DNA from: a bacterium
GTDB taxonomy: Bacteria > Bacteroidota > Ignavibacteria > UBA10030
Length of the DNA: 64,000 bases
Direction: 5' to 3'
NCBI GenBank assembly: GCA_043803945.1
Contig: JAZDJN010000016.1
Location: forward strand, 1-64,000
How positions within the stretch are numbered: the stretch's first letter is position 1; each line of letters starts with the position of its first letter. The notes beneath the pieces were generated by a model. The model made no database searches. It was not told where the DNA came from and saw only the letters and a list, made by a program, of their open reading frames with translations. Positions 23,225-31,638 of the stretch are shown piece after piece. The position numbers and the translations under genes were made by a program.

Positions 23225-24436
23225 CTATCGTAGAATTCCAAGTTTTCGGCCGACTTTATTGAACGCCTCGACAGCTTTATCAATATGTTCTTTTTCGTGC
23301 GCTGCCGATAATTGTACCCGTATCCTTGCTGCACCGCGCGGCACTACCGGATAGAAAAATCCAGTGACATAAATACCTTCCTGATACAGGTCACGGGCCA
23401 TAGCCTGTGTCAGTGCCGCATCGTGAATCATGATGGGCACAATTGGATGAAATCCCTCCTTGATTTCAAATCCTGCTTCCTTAATCCGTCGCCTGAAATA
23501 TTGTGCATTCCATTCGAGTTTATCACGGAGACTCGTCGATTGTTCAAGCAGCTCGATTGCCTTGATTGTCGCAGCGACAACGACAGGACTCATCGTATTA
23601 GAGAACAAATATGGCCGCGAACGCTGCCTGAGAAGGTCGATGAATATTTTCTGGCCGGCAATCGCCCCGCCAGAAGAGCCTCCCAATGCCTTCCCGAATG
23701 TTGTCGTGATAATATCGACACGATCCATCACATCAAAATGTTCGTGTGTGCCGCGTCCTGTTTTGCCGATAAAACCGGTGGAATGCGATTCATCGACGAG
23801 AAGGATTGCATCATACTCTTCAGCTAGGTTGCAGACCTCATCCAGTTTTGCGAGGTCACCATCCATCGAGAAGACGCCATCCGTGACGATCATTCGGAAG
23901 CGTTTGTTCACGGATTGTTTCAGATGATGTTCGAGGTCTTTCATATCGCCATGTTTATAGCGATGGCGCTCCGCTTTACAAAGTCGAATTCCATCAATAA
24001 TGGAGGCATGGTTCAATTCATCAGAGATGAGAGCATCCTCCTCAGTCAGGAGTGCTTCGAACACACCGCCATTCGCATCGAAACAGGACGAGTAGAGAAT
24101 CGCATCCTCCAAACCGAGGAAGGAGGATATTTTTCTCTCAAGCTCCTTATGCTGATCTTGTGTACCGCAGATAAAACGGACAGAGGACATACCGAATCCG
24201 CGCTCCTCTAATCCTTTCTTTGCAGCCTCGATTAACGCCGGATGGCTCGACAGGCCAAGGTAATTATTGGCACAGAAGTTTAACACTTGCTGCACCGGTG
24301 AGTTCACCGGGTACTCGACCGTAATCGTTGCTCCTTGTGATGAGTGAATAATCCGTTCTTCCTTGAATAAATCTGCATATTGTAATTCAACTAATTCTTT
24401 TCGATAAAATTCTTTTACGCGTTCATGAACTGCCAT
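23225..24436 (-). CDS. kbl: Glycine C-acetyltransferase-like alpha-oxoamine synthase (paralog B)
   Basis: [47 protein letters not shown] (PLP Lys), [22 protein letters not shown] before 24436. Confidence 0.92.
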
Positions 24437-24472
24437 GGAATAGCACTTCTCCTTTCTCATGATAAAACAGAC

Positions 24473-24733
24473 GTCTGTCTTCTTACAAAGAGCAACCATT
24501 GGTAGAAGACAGACGTCTAATCGATTATTGGAAGATACAACAGTTTTACGATTTATTGAATGGTTATTTTACAGAAGAATGGTGGAATCCTGTGGAAAAA
24601 GTCTGTCTTCTTACTGAGGTTGATCTGAGAAAGAAGACAGACTTTTAGGAGAGAGAGTCCATATCAAAAAGCCTGTCTTCTTCGAGAAGAAGTCTGTCTT
24701 CTTACAGAGAGTCATCGCGATTAGAAGACAGAC
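24473..24733. repeat. REP-like palindromes downstream of RAYT: cores at 24473-24514, 24601-24642, 24692-24733, plus a half copy at 24671-24681
   Basis: Each core is GTCTGTCTTCT-N20-AGAAGACAGAC, with exactly 20 nt between arms. Confidence 0.92.
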
Positions 24734-24748
24734 TTCTACCTATTTCTA

Positions 24749-25316
24749 TCAATCGAAAATCAGCTTCTCCAATTGCTCCCTATATTTCAGTTCATCCTGA
24801 TAGTCCATCACAAACTTCTTATATTCTATCGCTGAATTGAAAAACATTGAATGAACTTCTTTGGAGAACTTCTCTTTTCTCGGATCATTGCTACTCCAAT
24901 CAGAATAATCTGAGAATTTCCAATCCTCTGGCCTGTCAACCATGTGAGCCTTAACAGGATTTAAATGAATATAACGGCAAAGTATGGAGGAGGTGTTCAT
25001 CAGTTTTGATAAGCTTGATCCTGGTTCTTCCTTGAAAAAGATGACCGACCTTTGAATGCCAAGTATTGAAAGACTTGACATATGATGTATTGAAGGATCT
25101 TGAGATGTTCGACAGGTCGCACTCTTTGATAAGTCGAATTATCATGTGATAATGGTTGGGCATTAGACAATAGCAAATAACCGCAACCAACTCTGAATTG
25201 AAATATTTTCCAAGTTTTTCAAGGAAGAAGCGATAATTCTCTTCCTCGAGAAAGATGTTTTGCTTGTTGTTTCCTCTATTGTAGAGATGATAATAGGAGT
25301 TAGTTGGATAGAACAT
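24749..25316 (-). mobile_element. REP-associated tyrosine transposase (RAYT, Y1_Tnp/HUH), frameshifted near 24983
   Basis: YYHLYNRGNNKQNIF, YCLMPNHYH (HUH), GHLFQGR; in the shifted frame LCRYIHLNPVKA...DWKFS. One extra A in CAT-A-CTT-TGC-CGT-TAT splits the gene. Confidence 0.9.
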
Positions 25317-25342
25317 ACCCAATGTCCCTGTATCTATAAGAA

Positions 25343-25447
25343 GTCTGTCTTCTTACGGAGAGTAATCTCGGTTAGAAGACAGACTTCCAGGATTCTCAAG
25401 AAAAAGTCTGTCTTCTTACTGAGGTTAACCGCGATTAGAAGACAGAC
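25343..25447. repeat. REP-like palindromes upstream of RAYT: cores at 25343-25384 and 25406-25447
   Basis: Same GTCTGTCTTCT-N20-AGAAGACAGAC unit, in the same orientation. Confidence 0.92.
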
Positions 25448-25459
25448 TTTTAACTATCC

Positions 25460-26707
25460 TTACATACCGTACATCGCGATAATTTCGTCTTTTTTCTTCC
25501 CAAGGATTTTATACTTCTCACCCACCTTGGTAAAGGCTTCTACAGCTTTGTCCAGATGTTCCTTCTCATGATCAGCAGAGATTTGGGTACGAATTCTTGC
25601 CTGACCTTGCGGTACAACCGGGAAGAAAAAGCCGACGACATAGATTCCTTCTGCGTATAACTCTCTTGCAATATCCTGAGCGAGTTTTGCGTTGTAGAGC
25701 ATCACAGGAACAATGGGGCTTTCCCCCTTCTTGATATCGAGGCCGGCTGCAACCATTTTCTCGCGATAATATTTGGTATTCCATTCGAGTTTATCACGCC
25801 GTTCAGTCGATTTCGAGAGAATGTCGAGGATTGTGATTGCCGCCTGAATCACGACGGGTGGTACAGCATTCGAAAACAGATACGGGCGGGCACGCTGCCG
25901 GCACATTTCAATAATCTCTTTTTTTCCGCTGACACACCCGCCTGCCGCTCCACCGAGTGCCTTGCCGAGTGTTGTGGTGATAACATCGATCTTGTCAATC
26001 ACTCCGCAATGCTCGTGCGTTCCTTTCCCACGTACTCCGATGAAGCCAGTCGCATGAGAATCATCCACCATCACCATGGCATCGTACTTCTCTGCCAGTT
26101 CACAGATTTTATCAAGCTTCACGATATCCCCGTCCATCGAGAACACACCATCGGTGATAATCAATCTGAAGCGGCAATGTTGTGTCTCCTGAAGTTTCTC
26201 CTCGAGGTGAGCCATATCGGAATGTTTAAAATTATAGAGCTGCGCTTTTGCAAGACGCATGCCATCCACAATGGATGCATGGACGAGACGGTCTGCTATC
26301 ATCGCATCATCCTTGTCGAGCATCACTTCGAAGAGAGCCGCATTTGCTTCCATACAAGAGGGGAAGAGCAAGGTATCTTCCATTTCTAGGAATTCCGAAA
26401 GTTTCTTCTCCAACTCTCTATGGATATCCTGCGTCCCGCAGATGAAGCGAACGGAGGACATACCGTAGCCCCGTTCGTCCAATCCTCTATGTGCTGCGGC
26501 GATAACATCAGGATGACTGGAGAGCCCAAGATAATTATTTGCACAGAAGTTCAGTACCGTTTTTATCGGAGCTCCCGGGGGATATTCCACCATGATGGAA
26601 GCTGCTTGAGGTGACTTAATGGAACGCTCCTCTTTAAATAATCCTGCCCCTCTTATGCTTGAAAGCTCGGTCTGATAGTGCTCCATCGCCTTGATACTAT
26701 ATGCCAT
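25460..26707 (-). CDS. kbl: Glycine C-acetyltransferase-like alpha-oxoamine synthase (paralog A)
   Basis: [69 protein letters not shown]. Confidence 0.92.
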   Translation of the reverse strand: MAYSIKAMEHYQTELSSIRGAGLFKEERSIKSPQAASIMVEYPPGAPIKTVLNFCANNYLGLSSHPDVIAAAHRGLDERGYGMSSVRFICGTQDIHRELEKKLSEFLEMEDTLLFPSCMEANAALFEVMLDKDDAMIADRLVHASIVDGMRLAKAQLYNFKHSDMAHLEEKLQETQHCRFRLIITDGVFSMDGDIVKLDKICELAEKYDAMVMVDDSHATGFIGVRGKGTHEHCGVIDKIDVITTTLGKALGGAAGGCVSGKKEIIEMCRQRARPYLFSNAVPPVVIQAAITILDILSKSTERRDKLEWNTKYYREKMVAAGLDIKKGESPIVPVMLYNAKLAQDIARELYAEGIYVVGFFFPVVPQGQARIRTQISADHEKEHLDKAVEAFTKVGEKYKILGKKKDEIIAMYGM

Positions 26708-26717
26708 AAGGCCTCCA

Positions 26718-26972
26718 TTAGACTGTCGTAAATTCTTTGAGCATGATGAGAATATTATTCACAGAGTCGAATGCTTCAGGCGAAGCCTTCTCATCCGGGA
26801 TTTTAATTTGGAATTTCTTCTCCAGAAACATCTTCAGGGAGACCATCGAAAACGAATCCACAATGCCGCCGGATATCAGTTTTGTCTCAGCCGTGATCTC
26901 TTGATCATTATCCTCATCGAGATATTCTTTCTTGATATAGTCGACGATCATCTGTTTAATAGCTTCAGACAT
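26718..26972 (-). CDS. Stand-alone acyl carrier protein
   Basis: 84 aa, acidic, L...GIVDSFSMV.L..FLEKKFQIKI phosphopantetheine Ser motif (DltC-like fold). GGAGG RBS. Confidence 0.9.
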   Translation of the reverse strand: MSEAIKQMIVDYIKKEYLDEDNDQEITAETKLISGGIVDSFSMVSLKMFLEKKFQIKIPDEKASPEAFDSVNNILIMLKEFTTV

Positions 26973-27078
26973 GGTACCTCCAGTTGATTAGATATGAAAC
27001 CAATCATGATTTAGCTGCTCACGTTGCACAAGGAAAAAAGAACATCTATTCATACTACTTTTACCTAAGCGAATCCAA

Positions 27079-27138
27079 ACCACCCCTTCCTCCCCTCCCT
27101 GCCTGCGGCAGGCAGGCTTGCCAAGGGATATGGGGAGG
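27079..27138. repeat. GC-rich nested palindromic element
   Basis: CCTGCCTGC-G-GCAGGCAGG (27098-27116) embedded in CCTCCCC...CTTGCCAAGG...GGGGAGG. Confidence 0.6.
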
Positions 27139-27195
27139 TAAAAAACAGGATTTCAGATTTTTATCATTGAGGTTATTCTAACTGCATAACTTCAG

Positions 27196-28896
27196 TTAGT
27201 CATTCTCGAGGGTTGAGATATCGCCGATTTCTTCTCCCCACTCTTTGGCACGGAGCAGCCGGCGCATGATTTTCCCGCTGCGGGTCTTCGGCAGGGAATC
27301 GACAAACTCGATCTCCTGCGGCATAGCCAGCGGTGAAAGCTTCTTGCGTATAAAGTTCATGATCTCCATACTGAGATCGTCGCTCTTCTTGTTGCCGGGT
27401 TTCAGAGCGATGAACGCTTTCACAACTTCCATATTAATCGTATCAGGTTTACCAACGGCTGCCGATTCAGCAACAGCGGGATGCTCAAGGAGGGCCGATT
27501 CGATCTCAAACGGCCCTACAAGATGCCCTGCAGTATTGATGACATCATCATCCCGGCCAACGAACCAGTAATATCCATCGGCATCTATACTCGATCGGTC
27601 GCCGCAGATATACCATCCGTTTTTGAATTTGTTATCATACGCTTCCTTATTATTCCAATACATTCTCATCATCGATGGCCAGCCAGGCCGCAAACCAATG
27701 AGTCCGACGGTTCCAACTGCGGTAATCGGTTCATATGTTTTGGGATTAACAACTGCGGCGATGATTCCCGGAAATGGTTTTCCCATCGAACCGGGTTTGA
27801 CTTTCATTCCAGGGTAGTTTGAAATTACCATGGAACCCGTTTCGGTTTGCCAGAATGTATCGAGGAAAGGTTTGCCAAAAGCCTTCTCAGACCAGATCAC
27901 AGCCTCGGCATTCAGCGGTTCACCGACGCTGGCGAGGTGCCGCAGCGAGGCCAGGTTGAATTTATTCACCGGCTCCATTCCCTCTCTCATCAGCAATCTG
28001 ATTGCGGTCGGAGCTGAATACCATACGCTGATCTTATGCTTTTCAATGAAGGAGTACCACATCTGCGCACTGAATCCGGCATCGAGAACGGTTTGGGTGA
28101 CGCCGTTCGCCCAGGGTCCAATAATACCGTATGATGTTCCCGTAACCCATCCCGGGTCTGCTGTACACCAGTAGATATCCTCAGCTTTAAGATCGAGAAC
28201 CCATTTCGTTGTGATGTACTGCGCAATGATCGAGGAATGAACGTGTTGAGCACCTTTTGGCTTTCCGGTTGTCCCTGAAGTATAGTGAAGTACCGAGGGA
28301 GTTTCAGGCCCGACCGGATAGATCGGAAAGTGTTCAAGCCGGCCCTGCTGAACCATATCGAAGGCAATCTCATCCTTCTCGAGGATTTTCGTACCGGCAT
28401 CGAGAACAATGATCTGTTTCAATTCAGGCAACTGAGCCTGAATCCTGCGCACTTTACCGAGATGCTTTTTCACCGTCAGCACCGCTTTCGTTTTCGCATC
28501 ATCCAGACGGGTGAAGAGCGCCTCTTCACCAAATGCCGAGAATAGTGGTTGAACGATTCCTCCCATTTTCAGAATGCCGAGAAAGGAGATATAGAGTTCT
28601 GGGATGCGGTCCATAAAAACACAAATGCGATCTCCTGGTTGAAGACCGCATTCATGAAGCATTCGGGCGAAGCCATTGCTGTACATCCTGATGTCATTGT
28701 AGGAATACTTTCGGATTTCCCCAGTGAATCCTTCCCAAATCAGAGCAAGTTTTTCACCGTGGCCCTGTTCGCAGATTCGATCGCTGCAAAAGTAACCGAT
28801 GTTGTACTGGCCTTCCTTTCCAAAGCCGAGTTCCTCCTCTGAGAGTTTCCATTTAAAATCCTTATACCGTTCTTCATAGGAACCGATATTGCTCAT
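27196..28896 (-). CDS. acsA: AMP-forming acetate--CoA/ACP ligase (Bacillus AcsA-like)
   Basis: YTSGTTGKPKG, WCTADPGWVTG, SVGEPLN, DTFWQTETG, GRDDDVI, PKTRSGKIMRR. AGGAG RBS. Confidence 0.9.
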   Translation of the reverse strand: MSNIGSYEERYKDFKWKLSEEELGFGKEGQYNIGYFCSDRICEQGHGEKLALIWEGFTGEIRKYSYNDIRMYSNGFARMLHECGLQPGDRICVFMDRIPELYISFLGILKMGGIVQPLFSAFGEEALFTRLDDAKTKAVLTVKKHLGKVRRIQAQLPELKQIIVLDAGTKILEKDEIAFDMVQQGRLEHFPIYPVGPETPSVLHYTSGTTGKPKGAQHVHSSIIAQYITTKWVLDLKAEDIYWCTADPGWVTGTSYGIIGPWANGVTQTVLDAGFSAQMWYSFIEKHKISVWYSAPTAIRLLMREGMEPVNKFNLASLRHLASVGEPLNAEAVIWSEKAFGKPFLDTFWQTETGSMVISNYPGMKVKPGSMGKPFPGIIAAVVNPKTYEPITAVGTVGLIGLRPGWPSMMRMYWNNKEAYDNKFKNGWYICGDRSSIDADGYYWFVGRDDDVINTAGHLVGPFEIESALLEHPAVAESAAVGKPDTINMEVVKAFIALKPGNKKSDDLSMEIMNFIRKKLSPLAMPQEIEFVDSLPKTRSGKIMRRLLRAKEWGEEIGDISTLEND

Positions 28897-29020
28897 GCAC
28901 GAGTCTCCTTTGTTGATAGGGAATAATAATTGCCCCGCCTCTATCCTTCGAGCACCGAGAAATCTAAAACGAATTCTATCGAGGAACTCTCTCGATCTCC
29001 TTCGATAAGATAAACATGGT

Positions 29021-30247
29021 TTAAGGGGTAATCAGCACCTTGTAGGCATCTCCTGATGCAATGGCCTGAAATCCTTTGTCATACTCTTCCAAGGGAAGCT
29101 GATGTGTGACAAATCCTGTTTTCATGAATTGCTTTGCGAGTCCCGCTTTAAGCAATTTTTCCATTTGAATCCAGGTTTTGAACATTTTCCGGCCAATAAT
29201 GCCATGAACGGTGATACCGCTGAAGATAATATTCTTTGCAAAGTCAACCTGCATAGTCCCGGCTGGAATACCGAGGAGTGAGAACGTCCCACCCATCCGC
29301 AGTATCTTATTGGCGTCGTCATAAGCACGATAGTTACCCGACATTTCATAGGCAGCGTCGACGCCGGTTGTATTTGTTTCGCTCATCACTGTATCCACCA
29401 GTGCTCGTCGACCATCATCCAGTGCTACGTCGAAGCAATGATCTGCACCATACGTCTTGGCAAGAGCAAATCGCTGAGTGGTTAATTTTTCATGAGTGAA
29501 ATTCCCATGAGAAGCATCAGTCACATAGATTCGTTTTGCACCTGCCCAGTGAGCAACAGCGACAGCCATCAGTCCTTGCACACCGCAGCCGAGGACTGCA
29601 ACATTGCGGCCTTTGATATTGGCGGAGAGCACGGTATGCGTTGCATTTCCCAGGGCATCCATAAAGCTGATAATCTCCGGCGGAATTTCGCGCTTATAGA
29701 AGATCCGTAGATTCTGCGCCGGCACCTTCACATACTTCGTCCATGCCCCATCGTCATGGACACCTTTGATAATGGTGTTCCGACAGACATGATATTCACC
29801 AAGCCGGCATTGATAGCACGTGAAACAGACCACATGCATCTCAGCGGTAGTGAAAAACTTTGTTCCGACGAATTTCATAAATTTCGGATCAACGGCTAGT
29901 GACGCCGGTGTTTTCCCTTTCAACTGCTTTTTGAGCTCTGGATATTCTTCTGCCTTTTTAATAACAAGTTTCGCCAGATGGATGCGTGCCTGCTTACCAG
30001 CATCGACGATATTGCCGACAAATTCATGTCCGATGGTAACTGGATCGCTCTTTGCGCGCATCATCTGCACGCGCAAGGAATCCTTGCTATGGTAGATTCC
30101 CACATCTGTACCGCAGATTGCACCGGCATAAACTTTGATAACGACATCATGAGGTCCCTCAACCTTTGGCTCCGGTTTATCGACGATCTGTAATCCGGTT
30201 AACCACTCGATACCTTCCTTCGGTTTTGGTTTTACGATTGCTTTCAT
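29021..30247 (-). CDS. L-threonine 3-dehydrogenase-like Zn-dependent MDR with a ~40-aa insertion
   Basis: ICGTD, GHEFVG, CxxCxxCx7C, DALGNATHT, GCGVQG, EMSG, GIIGRKMFKTW (Tdh signature). Confidence 0.82.
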   Translation of the reverse strand: MKAIVKPKPKEGIEWLTGLQIVDKPEPKVEGPHDVVIKVYAGAICGTDVGIYHSKDSLRVQMMRAKSDPVTIGHEFVGNIVDAGKQARIHLAKLVIKKAEEYPELKKQLKGKTPASLAVDPKFMKFVGTKFFTTAEMHVVCFTCYQCRLGEYHVCRNTIIKGVHDDGAWTKYVKVPAQNLRIFYKREIPPEIISFMDALGNATHTVLSANIKGRNVAVLGCGVQGLMAVAVAHWAGAKRIYVTDASHGNFTHEKLTTQRFALAKTYGADHCFDVALDDGRRALVDTVMSETNTTGVDAAYEMSGNYRAYDDANKILRMGGTFSLLGIPAGTMQVDFAKNIIFSGITVHGIIGRKMFKTWIQMEKLLKAGLAKQFMKTGFVTHQLPLEEYDKGFQAIASGDAYKVLITP

Positions 30248-30326: not shown

Positions 30327-31367
30327 TTATTTCTTTTTCTTCCATTCCTCAAAATTTCTCCGAATATCACTTAAAACTTCACGATCGATCTGGTTATCTT
30401 CTCTGATCCGCACATCATAGTTTTCCCAGCCCATGAAATCCTGCAAAGCCTTTTTGGTCTTTGCGTCGAAGTCGCCATTCATTGGACCATCATAAAAAAC
30501 AAATCCTTTGTAGGCCTTCGTACTGAGAATTTCTTGAAGTTCCTTGCAGAGCGATCCATCAATTGGTATAAGGTTTTTAGAATCGGTTCGGTAATAGAAT
30601 AGTTTGTGGATCTTATAGAGACGTTCCAGTTCCTTCAATGGAGTGGCATGGTCGTAGATGCTGATATCGATGAGATCATCGGTAGTCCCATCATATCCGG
30701 CCCCTTTGCGTTTCACGAGAAGTGCTGCAGATTGTTCTCCCCGACGATCACCTCCAGCCCTCCCTCCGGCAACCAGTGCAGCGACGAGCCGATCAGCAAG
30801 TGATCCTTTTGTGCTTTCGAATGTCTTTGCCAGCGCCTCCACGGTTTCTTTACCAACAAGAATGTTTCCCTGTGCAGCAAATCCTTTTCCGACAATGACC
30901 TCACCTTTTCCGCCAGATGTTGATCCGGCTCTTCCTCCTGCCCAATCGAAGCATGCAGTACCTGTCCAGCTCGCAGCATTACCTTTCGCATCGATTATTC
31001 CAACCTGACGAACATCACGAGCCGTATCGTTCGCCAGAAGAATTCTCAAAGCTTCTTCAGCAGTTGCTCCATTACGTAAAAGCGTGAGTCCTTTCGGACC
31101 ATAGGAGACGTTGACGAACGATTGTGTTGCTATCGCACCGACACCCGCCTCTGCCCAGGGAACTACCGGTCGGACATTTGGAAATTTCGATTGAACTGCG
31201 ACACCTACGTCTCCATTCTCAAGATCGATTGCCGCTATCGAGAAGGTGGCAACAAGTGTGTCTCCATGCATACGCAACGCGTGGCGCGAACCTGGAGAAT
31301 TATTACTACAGATGAAAAATAATAAGACAACGATAAGAGCAGAAAACGGGATAATGCATCGAACCAT
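30327..31367 (-). CDS. DUF1028 Ntn-hydrolase-like protein with signal peptide and putative peptidoglycan-binding C-terminus
   Basis: ATFSI, GVAVQSKF, VGAIATQS, RQVGIID, QGNIL, GGDRRGEQSAAL. Start is uncertain (31367 or 31400). Confidence 0.85.
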   Translation of the reverse strand: MVRCIIPFSALIVVLLFFICSNNSPGSRHALRMHGDTLVATFSIAAIDLENGDVGVAVQSKFPNVRPVVPWAEAGVGAIATQSFVNVSYGPKGLTLLRNGATAEEALRILLANDTARDVRQVGIIDAKGNAASWTGTACFDWAGGRAGSTSGGKGEVIVGKGFAAQGNILVGKETVEALAKTFESTKGSLADRLVAALVAGGRAGGDRRGEQSAALLVKRKGAGYDGTTDDLIDISIYDHATPLKELERLYKIHKLFYYRTDSKNLIPIDGSLCKELQEILSTKAYKGFVFYDGPMNGDFDAKTKKALQDFMGWENYDVRIREDNQIDREVLSDIRRNFEEWKKKK

Positions 31368-31638
31368 TGAAATTTTCGCTCTATGCTGTTGTTCTTCCAT
31401 TCGCCCAATCGCTGAGAAGATAGAAATCCTTGTTGAGTAACGCTGCCTCTTTGCCGCGAAAATATAGGTAAAAACATGAAGAGACAACACTTTTTTTCAG
31501 CAAGAGTATCACATTCCGGCCTGTCGCAAAAATAGGAATGCGGGTAATCCACTAATCATGTCATGCTGTTACTTCAGAAGGATAACTACGATAGGATTCC
31601 ACTGATGTATAATGTACGGGGAAAATCGGAGGAGATGT

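Follow-up and report, generated by a model that had tools for sequence, protein, structure and literature searches.

A conserved trio inserted into a native tdh-kbl operon

Judged by conservation across genomes, the conserved unit at this locus is a trio comprising an AcsA-type ligase of the short form, a carrier protein of 84 aa, and a glycine C-acetyltransferase-like synthase of a distinct clade (KblA), often preceded by acpS. The best explanation for its conservation is that the three proteins would act as one functional module, which elsewhere often brings its own acpS. The trio is a mobile gene unit and, in this genome, it is inserted into the native tdh-kbl operon. If our reading is correct, the classic CoA-dependent Kbl reaction would here be run on a protein-bound acetyl group. 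The earlier note on this DNA knew of no described pathway of this form, and our search for a ligase-carrier-Kbl module likewise gave no description, leaving the module apparently undescribed in the literature searched.

The window, i.e., the whole stretch of DNA that was analyzed, spans 64,000 nt. The five co-oriented genes reported in the earlier note were all recovered at the same positions on the minus strand: a Zn-dependent dehydrogenase (Tdh; 29021-30247, 408 aa), an AMP-forming AcsA-type ligase (27196-28896, 566 aa), a stand-alone carrier protein (26718-26972, 84 aa), synthase A (KblA; 25460-26707, 415 aa), and synthase B (KblB; listed ORF, 23225-24499). ORF coordinates also reproduced the 10 nt between the carrier stop and the start of synthase A, the motifs quoted previously (GIVDS, GWVTG, SVGEP, and WQTE) were all found in the translations, and the family names given to the genes agreed with Pfam and NCBIfam scans. 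A pyruvate,phosphate dikinase gene is located near the module in the same window.

The ligase, carrier, and KblA are co-inherited across phyla

The carrier family comprises 5282 members and was found at a minimum of 573 loci among species-representative genomes of many phyla, with labels including Ignavibacteriota, WOR-3, Aminicenantes, Chrysiogenales, Zixiibacteriota, and Calditrichaeota. Neighborhoods were counted in 80 loci kept from this set. In 75 of them, the carrier is followed by KblA, at a distance of 150 nt or less in 66/75, and the five loci without KblA are located on contigs that end at most 614 nt past the carrier. The ligase was present in 67/80 loci and the complete trio in 62/80, with acpS directly upstream of the ligase in 25/80. 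Six genomes had a carrier with no ligase within 8 kb; five of these were searched, and a ligase with 70-72% identity was found elsewhere in each genome. In 5/5 WOR-3 genomes, no Kbl other than KblA scored above cut-off, and its gene is part of a tdh-acpS-ligase-carrier-kblA operon. A gene encoding a flavoprotein of the sarcosine/glycine-oxidase family follows KblA in 8/80 loci, which are from WOR-3.

Presence of the trio was also called in 40 relatives, using identities of at least 77% for the ligase, 73% for the carrier, and 77% for KblA. All three genes occurred together in 3 relatives and none of the three in the other 37, such that, with the window's own genome, the trio was all-or-none in 41/41 genomes. 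The proposal that a ligase, a carrier, and one Kbl-type synthase are conserved and co-inherited is supported by both sets of counts. The five genes did not behave as a unit, with Tdh (29/80 loci) and the second Kbl (34/80) being variable neighbors.

Tdh is native to the lineage but tracks the module at the genome level

The best NCBIfam matches of the dehydrogenase were to Tdh, in two stretches that both scored below cut-off (292 versus 380 and 268 versus 458). The protein is of the medium-chain Zn-dependent type, with an insertion of ~50 residues; its Zn motifs, both catalytic and structural, are readable in the translation. In six relatives without the carrier, the same long Tdh is encoded directly beside a plain kbl, a pairing which indicates, from gene content, that this is the lineage's own native Tdh, outside the mobile trio. 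Its place in the five-gene set of the earlier note is therefore not supported.

In a class sample of 201 genomes (25 with the carrier and 176 without), Tdh was present in 25/25 carrier genomes versus 83/176 others, linking the module to threonine dehydrogenase at the genome level, although the 25 carrier genomes represent seven families and the link weighs less than the raw counts suggest. The enzyme was Zn-dependent in 5 carrier genomes and of an unrelated short-chain fold in 20. Co-occurrence of the module with loss of thrB/thrC, a check suggested in the earlier note, was not observed: thrC is present in the window's own genome, and Tdh-bearing genomes of the sample contained it in 9/25 cases with the carrier versus 31/83 without.

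The ligase retains an acetate pocket and carries a module-specific basic cluster

The ligase scored 763 bits against the acetate--CoA ligase model NF003313 (cut-off, 729) and 560 bits over its full length against the short (~570 aa) acetyl-CoA synthetase 9g79_B, which we take to be Bacillus subtilis AcsA. Both enzymes share the domain layout, the catalytic Lys, and the acetate pocket; all four pocket residues were seen in the translation and the alignment, as anticipated. In contrast, the module ligase is always paired with a carrier, has a Leu in place of a conserved motif Arg, and carries a module-specific basic cluster at 144-151. This cluster (K144, H145, R150, and R/K151) is missing from the 19 nearest non-module enzymes and sits in a loop that, in the alignment, corresponds to the one with which Salmonella Acs binds the CoA nucleotide (residue roles from PMC10455477). 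According to the same source, the Arg aligned to R517 contacts the 3'-phosphate of CoA; R517 is invariant in 46/46 sequences and counts against the carrier reading, since the arm of a carrier is devoid of 3'-phosphate. The Leu at the motif Arg (Salmonella R526) was rejected as a carrier signature, the same change being found in 12/19 non-module relatives and being common to other uncharacterized short Acs-like enzymes; non-module ligases bearing it adjoin citrate synthase or 2-oxoacid dehydrogenase genes.

The module ligase is the sole Acs-like gene of the window's genome, and in the comparison of relatives the long canonical Acs was absent from 3/4 module-bearing genomes versus 11/37 without the module. 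On these counts, the acetyl-CoA synthetase of the cell may be this ligase, whose proposed role, based on its family and neighbors, is to load the carrier protein. A ligase-carrier complex prediction scored 0.51 versus 0.00 for the best of 3 controls, a pass at a mark reached by 58/80 solved complexes and 2/110 mismatched pairs, with passing scores of 0.60 or less comprising only 7/80 solved complexes and both passing mismatches; the prediction used its own alignments, and these benchmark counts hold only roughly for it. Prediction runs agreed in at least 95% of contacts, with a partner pLDDT of at least 85. Adenylating enzymes have already been solved with carrier proteins, however, and the pass may thus reflect memorized structures. 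The predicted complex lends weak support to the ligase-carrier pairing.

The carrier has an invariant Ser motif and KblA forms a distinct clade

The carrier had no Pfam match at E 0.001 and only weak NCBIfam carrier-protein matches, the best being the carrier of OlsHI ornithine-lipid synthesis (58 bits, far under the cut-off of 130). The planctomycete OlsHI carrier (PMC12493201) is likewise dedicated and partnered with an adenylate-forming enzyme, but its partner enzymes and product differ. Among solved structures, peptidyl, D-alanyl, and aminoacyl carrier proteins come closest. Ser40, within GIVDSFSM, is the presumed phosphopantetheine site; the stretch G36-M43 showed no variation across 46/46 sequences, and carrier identity across phyla is 63-88%. 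Related carrier proteins adjoin other adenylating ligases, and in one divergent ligase-carrier pair another gene follows downstream.

Both synthases exceeded the cut-off of the glycine C-acetyltransferase model TIGR01822 (493 bits), with 600 bits for KblA and 628 bits for KblB. KblA also scored 475 bits against E. coli Kbl (PDB 1fc4) and far less than its TIGR01822 score on BioF, ALAS, and serine palmitoyltransferase (SPT) models (234-334 bits on the latter, with cut-offs of 500-670), confirming that it scores as a Kbl and not as a long-chain enzyme. KblA proteins formed one clade in a quick tree (SH-aLRT 100), characterized by V142, P116, M119, and a conserved extra C-terminal tail. V142 replaces an Asn that precedes the PLP-stacking His and is invariant in 52/52 other Kbls compared, which suggests that KblA substrates may differ from glycine and acetyl; M119 and P116 are located in the loop binding the PLP phosphate. 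By sequence, KblA is best viewed as a glycine C-acetyltransferase (2-amino-3-ketobutyrate ligase) clade linked to the carrier. KblB is 59% identical to KblA and keeps the Asn that KblA lost. In the tree, it clusters with second Kbls from other module loci rather than with the relatives' native Kbls, and its clade frequently accompanies the module; it is presumably CoA-dependent.

Relation to known systems

A carrier-protein thiol is charged with acetate at the expense of ATP by CitC, the acetate:[citrate-lyase carrier protein] ligase, which offers a precedent; however, CitC belongs to an unrelated enzyme family, its prosthetic group is likewise unrelated, and it acts in the activation of citrate lyase and not for an oxoamine synthase. 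The AasR/AcpR/SPT system of Caulobacter and other Rhodobacteria (PMC9386255) resembles the module in its co-occurring ANL ligase, specialized small carrier, and alpha-oxoamine synthase. There, the ligase leaves CoA alone and acylates its own carrier only, and acyl-carrier is the preferred substrate of the synthase. However, that system uses long fatty acids and serine to start sphingolipids, whereas the module combines an acetate-type Acs with Kbl and would be threonine-linked, joining C2 and glycine; moreover, none of the three proteins is orthologous, as the SPT scores of KblA illustrate. The Tdh-Kbl pathway of E. coli and Cupriavidus necator (PMC9814548) involves the same enzyme families and 2-amino-3-oxobutyrate, but it runs on free CoA and needs no ligase or carrier, in contrast to a module whose KblA belongs to a separate clade with a lost Asn and an extra tail.

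Proposed reaction and its direction

From the conservation, co-inheritance, and family membership described above, we infer the following chemistry: acetate would be loaded on the carrier, and KblA would interconvert acetyl-carrier and glycine with 2-amino-3-oxobutyrate, coupled to Tdh, a reading that we hold to be somewhat more probable than its negation. Ser40 of the carrier would be phosphopantetheinylated, and the AcsA-type ligase would adenylate acetate and acetylate the thiol of the carrier instead of, or besides, CoA. KblA would release holo-carrier as it forms 2-amino-3-oxobutyrate, and vice versa, with threonine dehydrogenase connecting this intermediate and threonine. Such a private carrier would separate a C2 pool from acetyl-CoA. 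We lean slightly toward the assimilatory direction, from acetate and glycine to threonine, because AMP-forming ligases normally activate acids and because fatty-acid metabolism uses a carrier protein for synthesis and CoA for breakdown. Kbl has been assayed in vitro in the condensing direction (PMC9814548), suggesting that either direction is chemically possible. A search for a riboswitch or other regulatory hint to direction found none.

The same module could run in a catabolic, energy-conserving direction, which we consider unlikely. Tdh would oxidize threonine, KblA and holo-carrier would give glycine and acetyl-carrier, and the reversed ligase would convert acetyl-carrier, AMP, and PPi into acetate and ATP, the private pool allowing a thioester ratio far from that of CoA. 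Such a route would suit the location of the module in or beside threonine-breakdown genes and, in the class sample, only in Tdh-bearing genomes, as well as the dikinase gene nearby. The flavoprotein of WOR-3 would fit onward use of glycine, and acetate kinase was above cut-off in 0/5 WOR-3 genomes, in which another thioester-to-ATP route would be useful. In Syntrophus, an AMP-forming Acs has reportedly been proposed to run in reverse. Furthermore, Ignavibacterium-type hosts are described as needing yeast extract and being without the aspartate-family pathway (PMC3362086), consistent with amino-acid catabolism. However, ligases of this type normally run toward the thioester, and this genome contains two acetate kinase genes and a second Kbl, so that ATP can be made by the usual path through CoA. 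This reading also gives no reason for bypassing CoA, which Acs accepts.

Formation of a different small amino-ketone appears improbable. KblA would join the acyl-carrier to a non-glycine amino acid, or the ligase would load propionate or another small acid, and the product, instead of a threonine intermediate, would be a metabolite or signal of the aminoacetone or pyrazine type. The active-site motif and tail that set KblA apart from all 52 compared Kbls would accommodate this, but its score on the Kbl equivalog model and the ligase pocket residues, which are those of acetate-specific Acs, speak against it. Tdh and Kbl feed pyrazine formation via aminoacetone (PMC9814548), and dedicated ligase/carrier/oxoamine-synthase sets mostly serve specialized products (PMC9386255). 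Identities of 65-87% across phyla and an occurrence in hundreds of species are more like core metabolism, however, and no conserved tailoring or export genes were seen in the neighborhoods of the loci.

Slightly less probable still is that an ordinary acetyl-CoA synthetase and CoA-dependent Kbls adjoin by chance, with the carrier serving another role or none: the ligase and both Kbls do exceed the curated cut-offs of ordinary families, the ligase keeps R517 and is the genome's only Acs, and acetyl-CoA is the normal Kbl co-substrate, which would make acs beside kbl sensible without a carrier, but chance is at odds with the all-or-none trio, the short carrier-KblA distances, the recruitment of acpS, the module-specific sequence types of KblA and the ligase, and the identity of the carrier across phyla with its invariant Ser motif.

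A decayed transposase separates the two synthases

Synthases A and B are separated by 960 nt, in which lies a REP-associated tyrosine transposase (RAYT; 24749-25322, minus strand) that the earlier note had overlooked. It is split across two overlapping ORFs in different frames (24951-25322 and 24749-25081) and matches PF01797 and NF047646, both below cut-off; this copy is decayed. A cluster of REP hairpins flanks the remnant (24471-25449) and holds 10/10 REP-arm matches of the window, with 0.03 expected by chance. The listed synthase B ORF extends to 24499, and a REP arm lies inside its 5' end, which indicates that the true start is probably the ATG at 24436 (KblB, 23225-24436).

Conservation of the ligase, carrier and KblA genes across phyla

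The carrier family is large and highly uniform: 5282 proteins match at E ≤ 0.001, and identity is 73-100% for the top 120 of them. With one genome scanned per species, more than 594 pattern matches for the carrier were obtained, of which 573 were confirmed, and the locus counts that follow rest on 80 loci kept out of at least 573 confirmed carrier loci. The taxon labels of these 80 loci include Ignavibacteriota/Bacteroidota, WOR-3, Aminicenantes, Chrysiogenales, Zixiibacteriota, Calditrichaeota, Fibrobacteraceae and Planctomycetota, among others. KblA, the carrier-linked type of Kbl (glycine C-acetyltransferase), was encoded downstream of the carrier in 75 of the 80 loci, with a gap of at most 150 nt in 66 of these 75, and in each of the five loci without it the contig ends no more than 614 nt past the carrier. 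The AMP-forming, AcsA-type ligase was present in 67/80 loci. Among the 13 loci without ligase, seven have 1045 nt of contig or less upstream and six have the full 8 kb but none; upstream ORFs in the loci lacking a ligase encode succinate dehydrogenase subunits or have no Pfam match. The full trio was found in 62/80 loci, a second Kbl in 34/80 and Tdh (L-threonine 3-dehydrogenase) in 29/80, the Tdh genes being split into 10 long-form and 19 normal-length ones.

The earlier note had proposed a neighbourhood search for acs-ACP-kbl-kbl(-tdh) across genomes. Ligase, carrier and KblA proved conserved, whereas the second Kbl and Tdh are found in fewer than half of the loci. A cluster of 125-aa ORFs located immediately 5' of the ligase in 25/80 loci proved to encode holo-ACP synthase (TIGR00516, 86.7 versus 59.8 bits). 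From the locus counts and this acpS cluster, the conserved unit, hereafter the module, is (acpS)-ligase-carrier-KblA and not the five-gene set. No acpS lies in the window, the sole copy of the genome being on another contig. In a metagenome scan run for another purpose, in which many contigs were short, the carrier was downstream of the ligase in 58/80 loci, with KblA as well in 43.

The trio was also inherited as a whole. Among 40 relatives from the same family and order as the window's genome, the carrier (73-78% identity), the ligase (77-80%) and KblA (77-87%) were each found only in G011, G018 and G025. In the remaining relatives, the Acs is of the long canonical type (39-42% identity) or missing, and one Kbl at 45-50% identity is accompanied by a more distant oxoamine synthase. 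All three genes were present or all three were absent in 41/41 genomes (the 40 relatives and the window's own). Moreover, five of the six carrier genomes without a ligase within 8 kb were searched, and a ligase 70-72% identical was located elsewhere in 5/5.

The window trio and its native surroundings

In the window, the five minus-strand ORFs described in the earlier note were all recovered, namely, a Zn-dependent dehydrogenase that is a long Tdh (29021-30247, 408 aa), the ligase (27196-28896, 566 aa), the carrier protein (26718-26972, 84 aa), synthase A or KblA (25460-26707, 415 aa), and synthase B or KblB, the second Kbl (23225-24499 as listed ORF). The motifs quoted there for the ligase and the carrier are found in the ORF translations, and the carrier stop is indeed 10 nt from the start of synthase A. 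What that reading missed is a gene for a REP-associated tyrosine transposase (RAYT) broken over two frames, which occupies the 960-nt gap between kblA and kblB. Two overlapping ORFs in different frames match NF047646 at 38.7 and 27.9 bits (cut-off 80), and no intact ORF is present. REP hairpins flank this remnant, and 10/10 of the REP-arm matches in the window fall in 24471-25449, where 0.03 would be expected by chance. A single intergenic region of the 64-kb window, the one splitting kblA from kblB, therefore holds every REP-arm match. Because one REP arm sits inside the 5' end of the listed synthase B ORF, the true start of this gene is probably the ATG at 24436. A stretch of about 1 kb also lies between the two kbl genes of another locus (L058:9567-10572), with similar gaps in L071 and L077; no ORF of at least 50 aa was found in the L058 gap.

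In six carrier-less relatives (G014, G028, G029, G030, G036 and G038), the long Tdh directly adjoins the single native kbl, so that the window trio sits inside a native tdh-kbl operon. The same arrangement led us to reject the long Tdh as a module-specific reductase, since it is the ordinary Tdh of the lineage. In a quick tree with SH-aLRT support, KblA formed a single clade (support of 100) and the native Kbls of the relatives a separate one, while the window KblB grouped with the second Kbls of other module loci (98), this group being weakly sister to KblA (81). Judging from this tree, KblB probably arrived with the module and is not the native gene.

Around the cluster, a DUF1028 protein with a C-terminal peptidoglycan-binding domain is encoded at 30327-31490, between rsmB and tdh, and the closest relatives (L019, L021 and L022) show the same gene order, with rsmB, DUF1028, tdh ... 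kbl, an HGSNAT-like gene and rmuC. A search of the window region with E values as high as 1 revealed no riboswitch or leader RNA, a single sub-threshold sRNA match lying elsewhere, nor did any reach the gathering threshold in the 9 loci scanned out of 80. Likewise, a promoter and terminator scan returned no more sites than shuffled sequence.

KblA is a distinct clade of the glycine C-acetyltransferase family

Both Kbls of the window exceed the cut-off of the glycine C-acetyltransferase model TIGR01822 (493 bits), KblA with 600 bits and KblB with 628. KblA also matches E. coli Kbl (PDB 1fc4) at 475 bits and falls below the cut-offs of the serine palmitoyltransferase (SPT) models. We compared 46 KblA with 52 other Kbls (20 native Kbls of relatives and 32 second copies from module loci). 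The residue directly before the PLP-stacking His (LNHAS) is Val (V142) in 46/46 KblA and Asn in 52/52 others, including KblB, a change that would leave room for altered substrates in KblA. The comparison further gave P116 and M119 (SxxFxAN loop), C269, V293, R303 and N339 as specific to KblA, along with about 12 conserved residues extending its C-terminus, which the other 52 lack. KblA is the only Kbl above cut-off in five WOR-3 genomes (three are complete chromosomes), where the genes are arranged as a tdh-acpS-ligase-carrier-kblA operon. As the sole such enzyme, encoded in the same operon as tdh, KblA must, on gene content, be the partner of Tdh in these genomes.

The ligase keeps the acetate-pocket residues and an Arg aligned with a CoA-contacting one

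The window ligase passes the model for acetate--CoA ligase of the short AcsA type (NF003313, 763 bits, cut-off 729), and among solved structures it is closest to a 572-aa acetyl-CoA synthetase (PDB 9g79_B, 560 bits over the full length). Alignment to the Salmonella enzyme, whose acetate-pocket positions are V310, T311, V386 and W414, showed that the pocket residues and the catalytic Lys are kept (GWVTG, SVGEP, FWQTE and SGKIM). These motifs, among them the small-pocket Acs residues (GWVTG, SVGEP and WQTE) pointed out in the earlier note, are invariant in 46/46 module ligases.

Residues of the thioester step gave a more mixed picture. In a report on Salmonella Acs (PMC10455477), CoA binding and the thioester step are assigned to three Arg (R191, R526 and R584), with R584 contacting the 3'-phosphate of CoA. 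R584 aligns with window R517, which is kept and invariant among the 46 module ligases, R526 aligns with window L459, which is Leu in 46/46, and R191 corresponds to a poorly aligned loop holding an invariant K148. We considered the R526-to-Leu change as a mark of carrier loading and rejected it, since several short Acs-like enzymes outside the module have it in a 50%-identity representative library, and overall 12 of 19 non-module relatives share the Leu. In metagenome loci, the neighbours of such Leu-type non-module ligases are genes for citrate synthase, 2-oxoacid dehydrogenase E1/E2 and lactate/malate dehydrogenase, with no carrier. Such Leu-type short Acs-like ligases, which dispense with the R526 equivalent, make up a subfamily (L171, L173, L175, L206, L224, L244 and L247). 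The R191/R194 loop of module ligases does hold a module-specific basic cluster (K144, H145, R150 and R/K151), absent from the 19 non-module relatives. Since the carrier is acidic in composition (16 Asp/Glu versus 10 Lys) and this loop is basic, the cluster from K144 to R/K151 may be a docking patch for the carrier.

The ligase is the sole Acs-like gene of the window's genome, and a long Acs is absent from 3/4 module-bearing genomes versus 11/37 genomes without the module. Together with the retained R517, the sole-Acs status and the missing long Acs weigh against an exclusive carrier role for the ligase. The window's genome, at 5.5 Mb, is large for its family (1.6-4.4 Mb); it has two acetate kinase genes and no long canonical Acs, though most relatives have one.

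A carrier type found beside adenylating enzymes

Curated models gave only weak carrier-protein matches to the carrier, and among solved structures it comes closest to stand-alone peptidyl, D-alanyl, prolyl and aminoacyl carrier proteins rather than to fatty-acid ACP. The Ser in GIVDSFSM is invariant and is the presumed site of phosphopantetheine attachment, at which the acpS gene of 25/80 loci also hints indirectly. Weaker relatives of the carrier adjoin other adenylating ligases in neighbouring genomes (e.g., G039 C24 and G015 C167), and on one metagenome contig (L246:4908-7571) a carrier with 37% identity comes after a divergent Acs-like ligase (44% identity, with FQTE for WQTE). By these neighbours, carriers of this type habitually go together with adenylating enzymes. 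The third gene of the L246 contig, cut by the contig end, has no Pfam match and is of no known family; the arrangement may represent a second use of the ligase-carrier pair.

Prediction of the ligase-carrier complex gave a score of 0.51, compared with 0.00 for the best of three controls, with at least 95% of contacts agreeing between runs and a partner pLDDT of at least 85. The mark was reached by 58/80 solved complexes and 2/110 mismatched pairs, and a score of 0.60 or less by only 7 of the 80 solved complexes and both passing mismatches, counts that hold only roughly here because custom alignments were used. Adenylating enzyme-carrier complexes of like kind have already been solved, so the pass may reflect structures already known to the predictor, and the prediction lends weak support to docking of the carrier by the ligase.

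Relation to described systems

The closest described system is AasR/AcpR/serine palmitoyltransferase, which has the same three-part design and uses long-chain acyl groups and serine to start sphingolipid synthesis, whereas acetate and glycine are the predicted substrates of the module (PMC9386255). As in that type, the ligase, carrier and synthase of the module co-occur and are linked. Unlike it, the module has a ligase that passes the acetate model and keeps the small pocket, and a synthase that scores above the Kbl cut-off but below those of the SPT models. The module employs near-orthologues of two textbook CoA enzymes, Acs and Kbl, and annotation pipelines name its genes plain acetyl-CoA synthetase and glycine C-acetyltransferase. 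In agreement with the earlier note, whose author knew of no such pathway, no description of the module was found in the full-text literature searched, a body with subscription journals mostly outside its coverage. If the module does work on a private carrier protein, the ligase, carrier and oxoamine-synthase design known from sphingolipid synthesis would extend to C2 amino-acid metabolism. For hundreds of uncultured anaerobes from sediment and groundwater, metabolic reconstructions would then misread acetate, glycine and threonine fluxes.

The carrier accompanies two types of threonine dehydrogenase

The window dehydrogenase has Tdh as its best match but stays below cut-off (TIGR00692 / NF003808; 268 versus 458 and 292 versus 380 bits), with an insertion of about 50 residues breaking each model match in two. 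This long Zn-type Tdh (about 408-430 aa; the insertion follows the GHE motif) is what the lineage usually has, and as it lies below both curated cut-offs, annotation pipelines may fail to name it.

In a class sample of 201 genomes, including the window's own, the carrier was present in 25. Zn-type Tdh (E 1e-60 or better) was found in 5 of these 25, and the other 20 carry a short-chain-type Tdh of unrelated fold, which disposes of the initial impression that the module occurs in genomes without any Tdh (20/25 at first). The short-chain Tdh was picked out among 16 epimerase-family genes of one genome (448 bits to PDB 2yy7); two other candidates were not Tdh when compared with solved structures. 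Overall, Tdh of either fold was present in 25/25 genomes with the carrier versus 83/176 without, a raw contrast that overstates the evidence, the 25 genomes representing seven families. Because the association spans two non-homologous Tdh folds, the gene content points to their shared intermediate, 2-amino-3-oxobutyrate. The two folds were never together in one genome of the sample (no overlap between 62 and 46).

Direction of the route and threonine supply

The route could run in the assimilatory direction, with threonine made from acetate and glycine. AMP-forming ligases normally run this way, the routine Kbl assay measures the condensing direction (PMC9814548), and, by analogy with fatty acids, a carrier would go with synthesis and CoA with breakdown. 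Alternatively, the route may be catabolic, with ATP gained from threonine: the module sits among threonine-breakdown genes, a sarcosine/glycine-oxidase-family gene follows KblA in eight WOR-3 loci, and acetate kinase is above cut-off in 0/5 WOR-3 genomes. The window's genome has two such genes, and no regulatory clue to the direction came from the RNA-motif, promoter and terminator scans. If it does work on a private carrier, the module may provide a second threonine route or a new ATP gain from threonine.

A wider form of the assimilatory reading is a carrier-insulated C2 shuttle in central amino-acid metabolism, in which breakdown of the threonine skeleton (Kbl and CoA) and its synthesis (KblA and acetyl-carrier) would be separated by thiol, and ATP-driven loading of a private carrier would let anaerobes make threonine from glycine and acetate, including hosts without the aspartate pathway (Ignavibacterium and some WOR-3). 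Under this reading, an Acs-type enzyme would for the first time be seen to acetylate a carrier protein, and KblA would be the first Kbl to depend on a carrier. We hold this to be rather unlikely as a whole. A MAG of Ignavibacterium album carries the module (L088). In the I. album genome paper (PMC3362086), thrA, lysC and asd are given as missing and growth as dependent on yeast extract, and the terms "threonine," "acetyl-CoA synthetase" and "acyl carrier" do not occur. For hosts lacking the aspartate pathway, the module might supply threonine.

The earlier note had also proposed checking for loss of thrB/thrC alongside the module, which our counts for thrC contradict. The window's genome has thrC (288 bits, cut-off 167), as do 3/5 WOR-3 genomes, and among Tdh-bearing genomes thrC (E 1e-45 or better) was found in 9/25 with the carrier versus 31/83 without. 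Furthermore, some families lack both thrC and the carrier (thrC in 0/21 genomes of f11, 0/22 of f14 and 0/12 of f26). Given these counts and these families, thrC loss does not track the module. Across the sample, 113/201 genomes had no thrC at E 1e-45, and entire families without it retain a Tdh, examples being f12 (Tdh 11/11, thrC 0/11) and f14 (Tdh 21/22, thrC 0/22).
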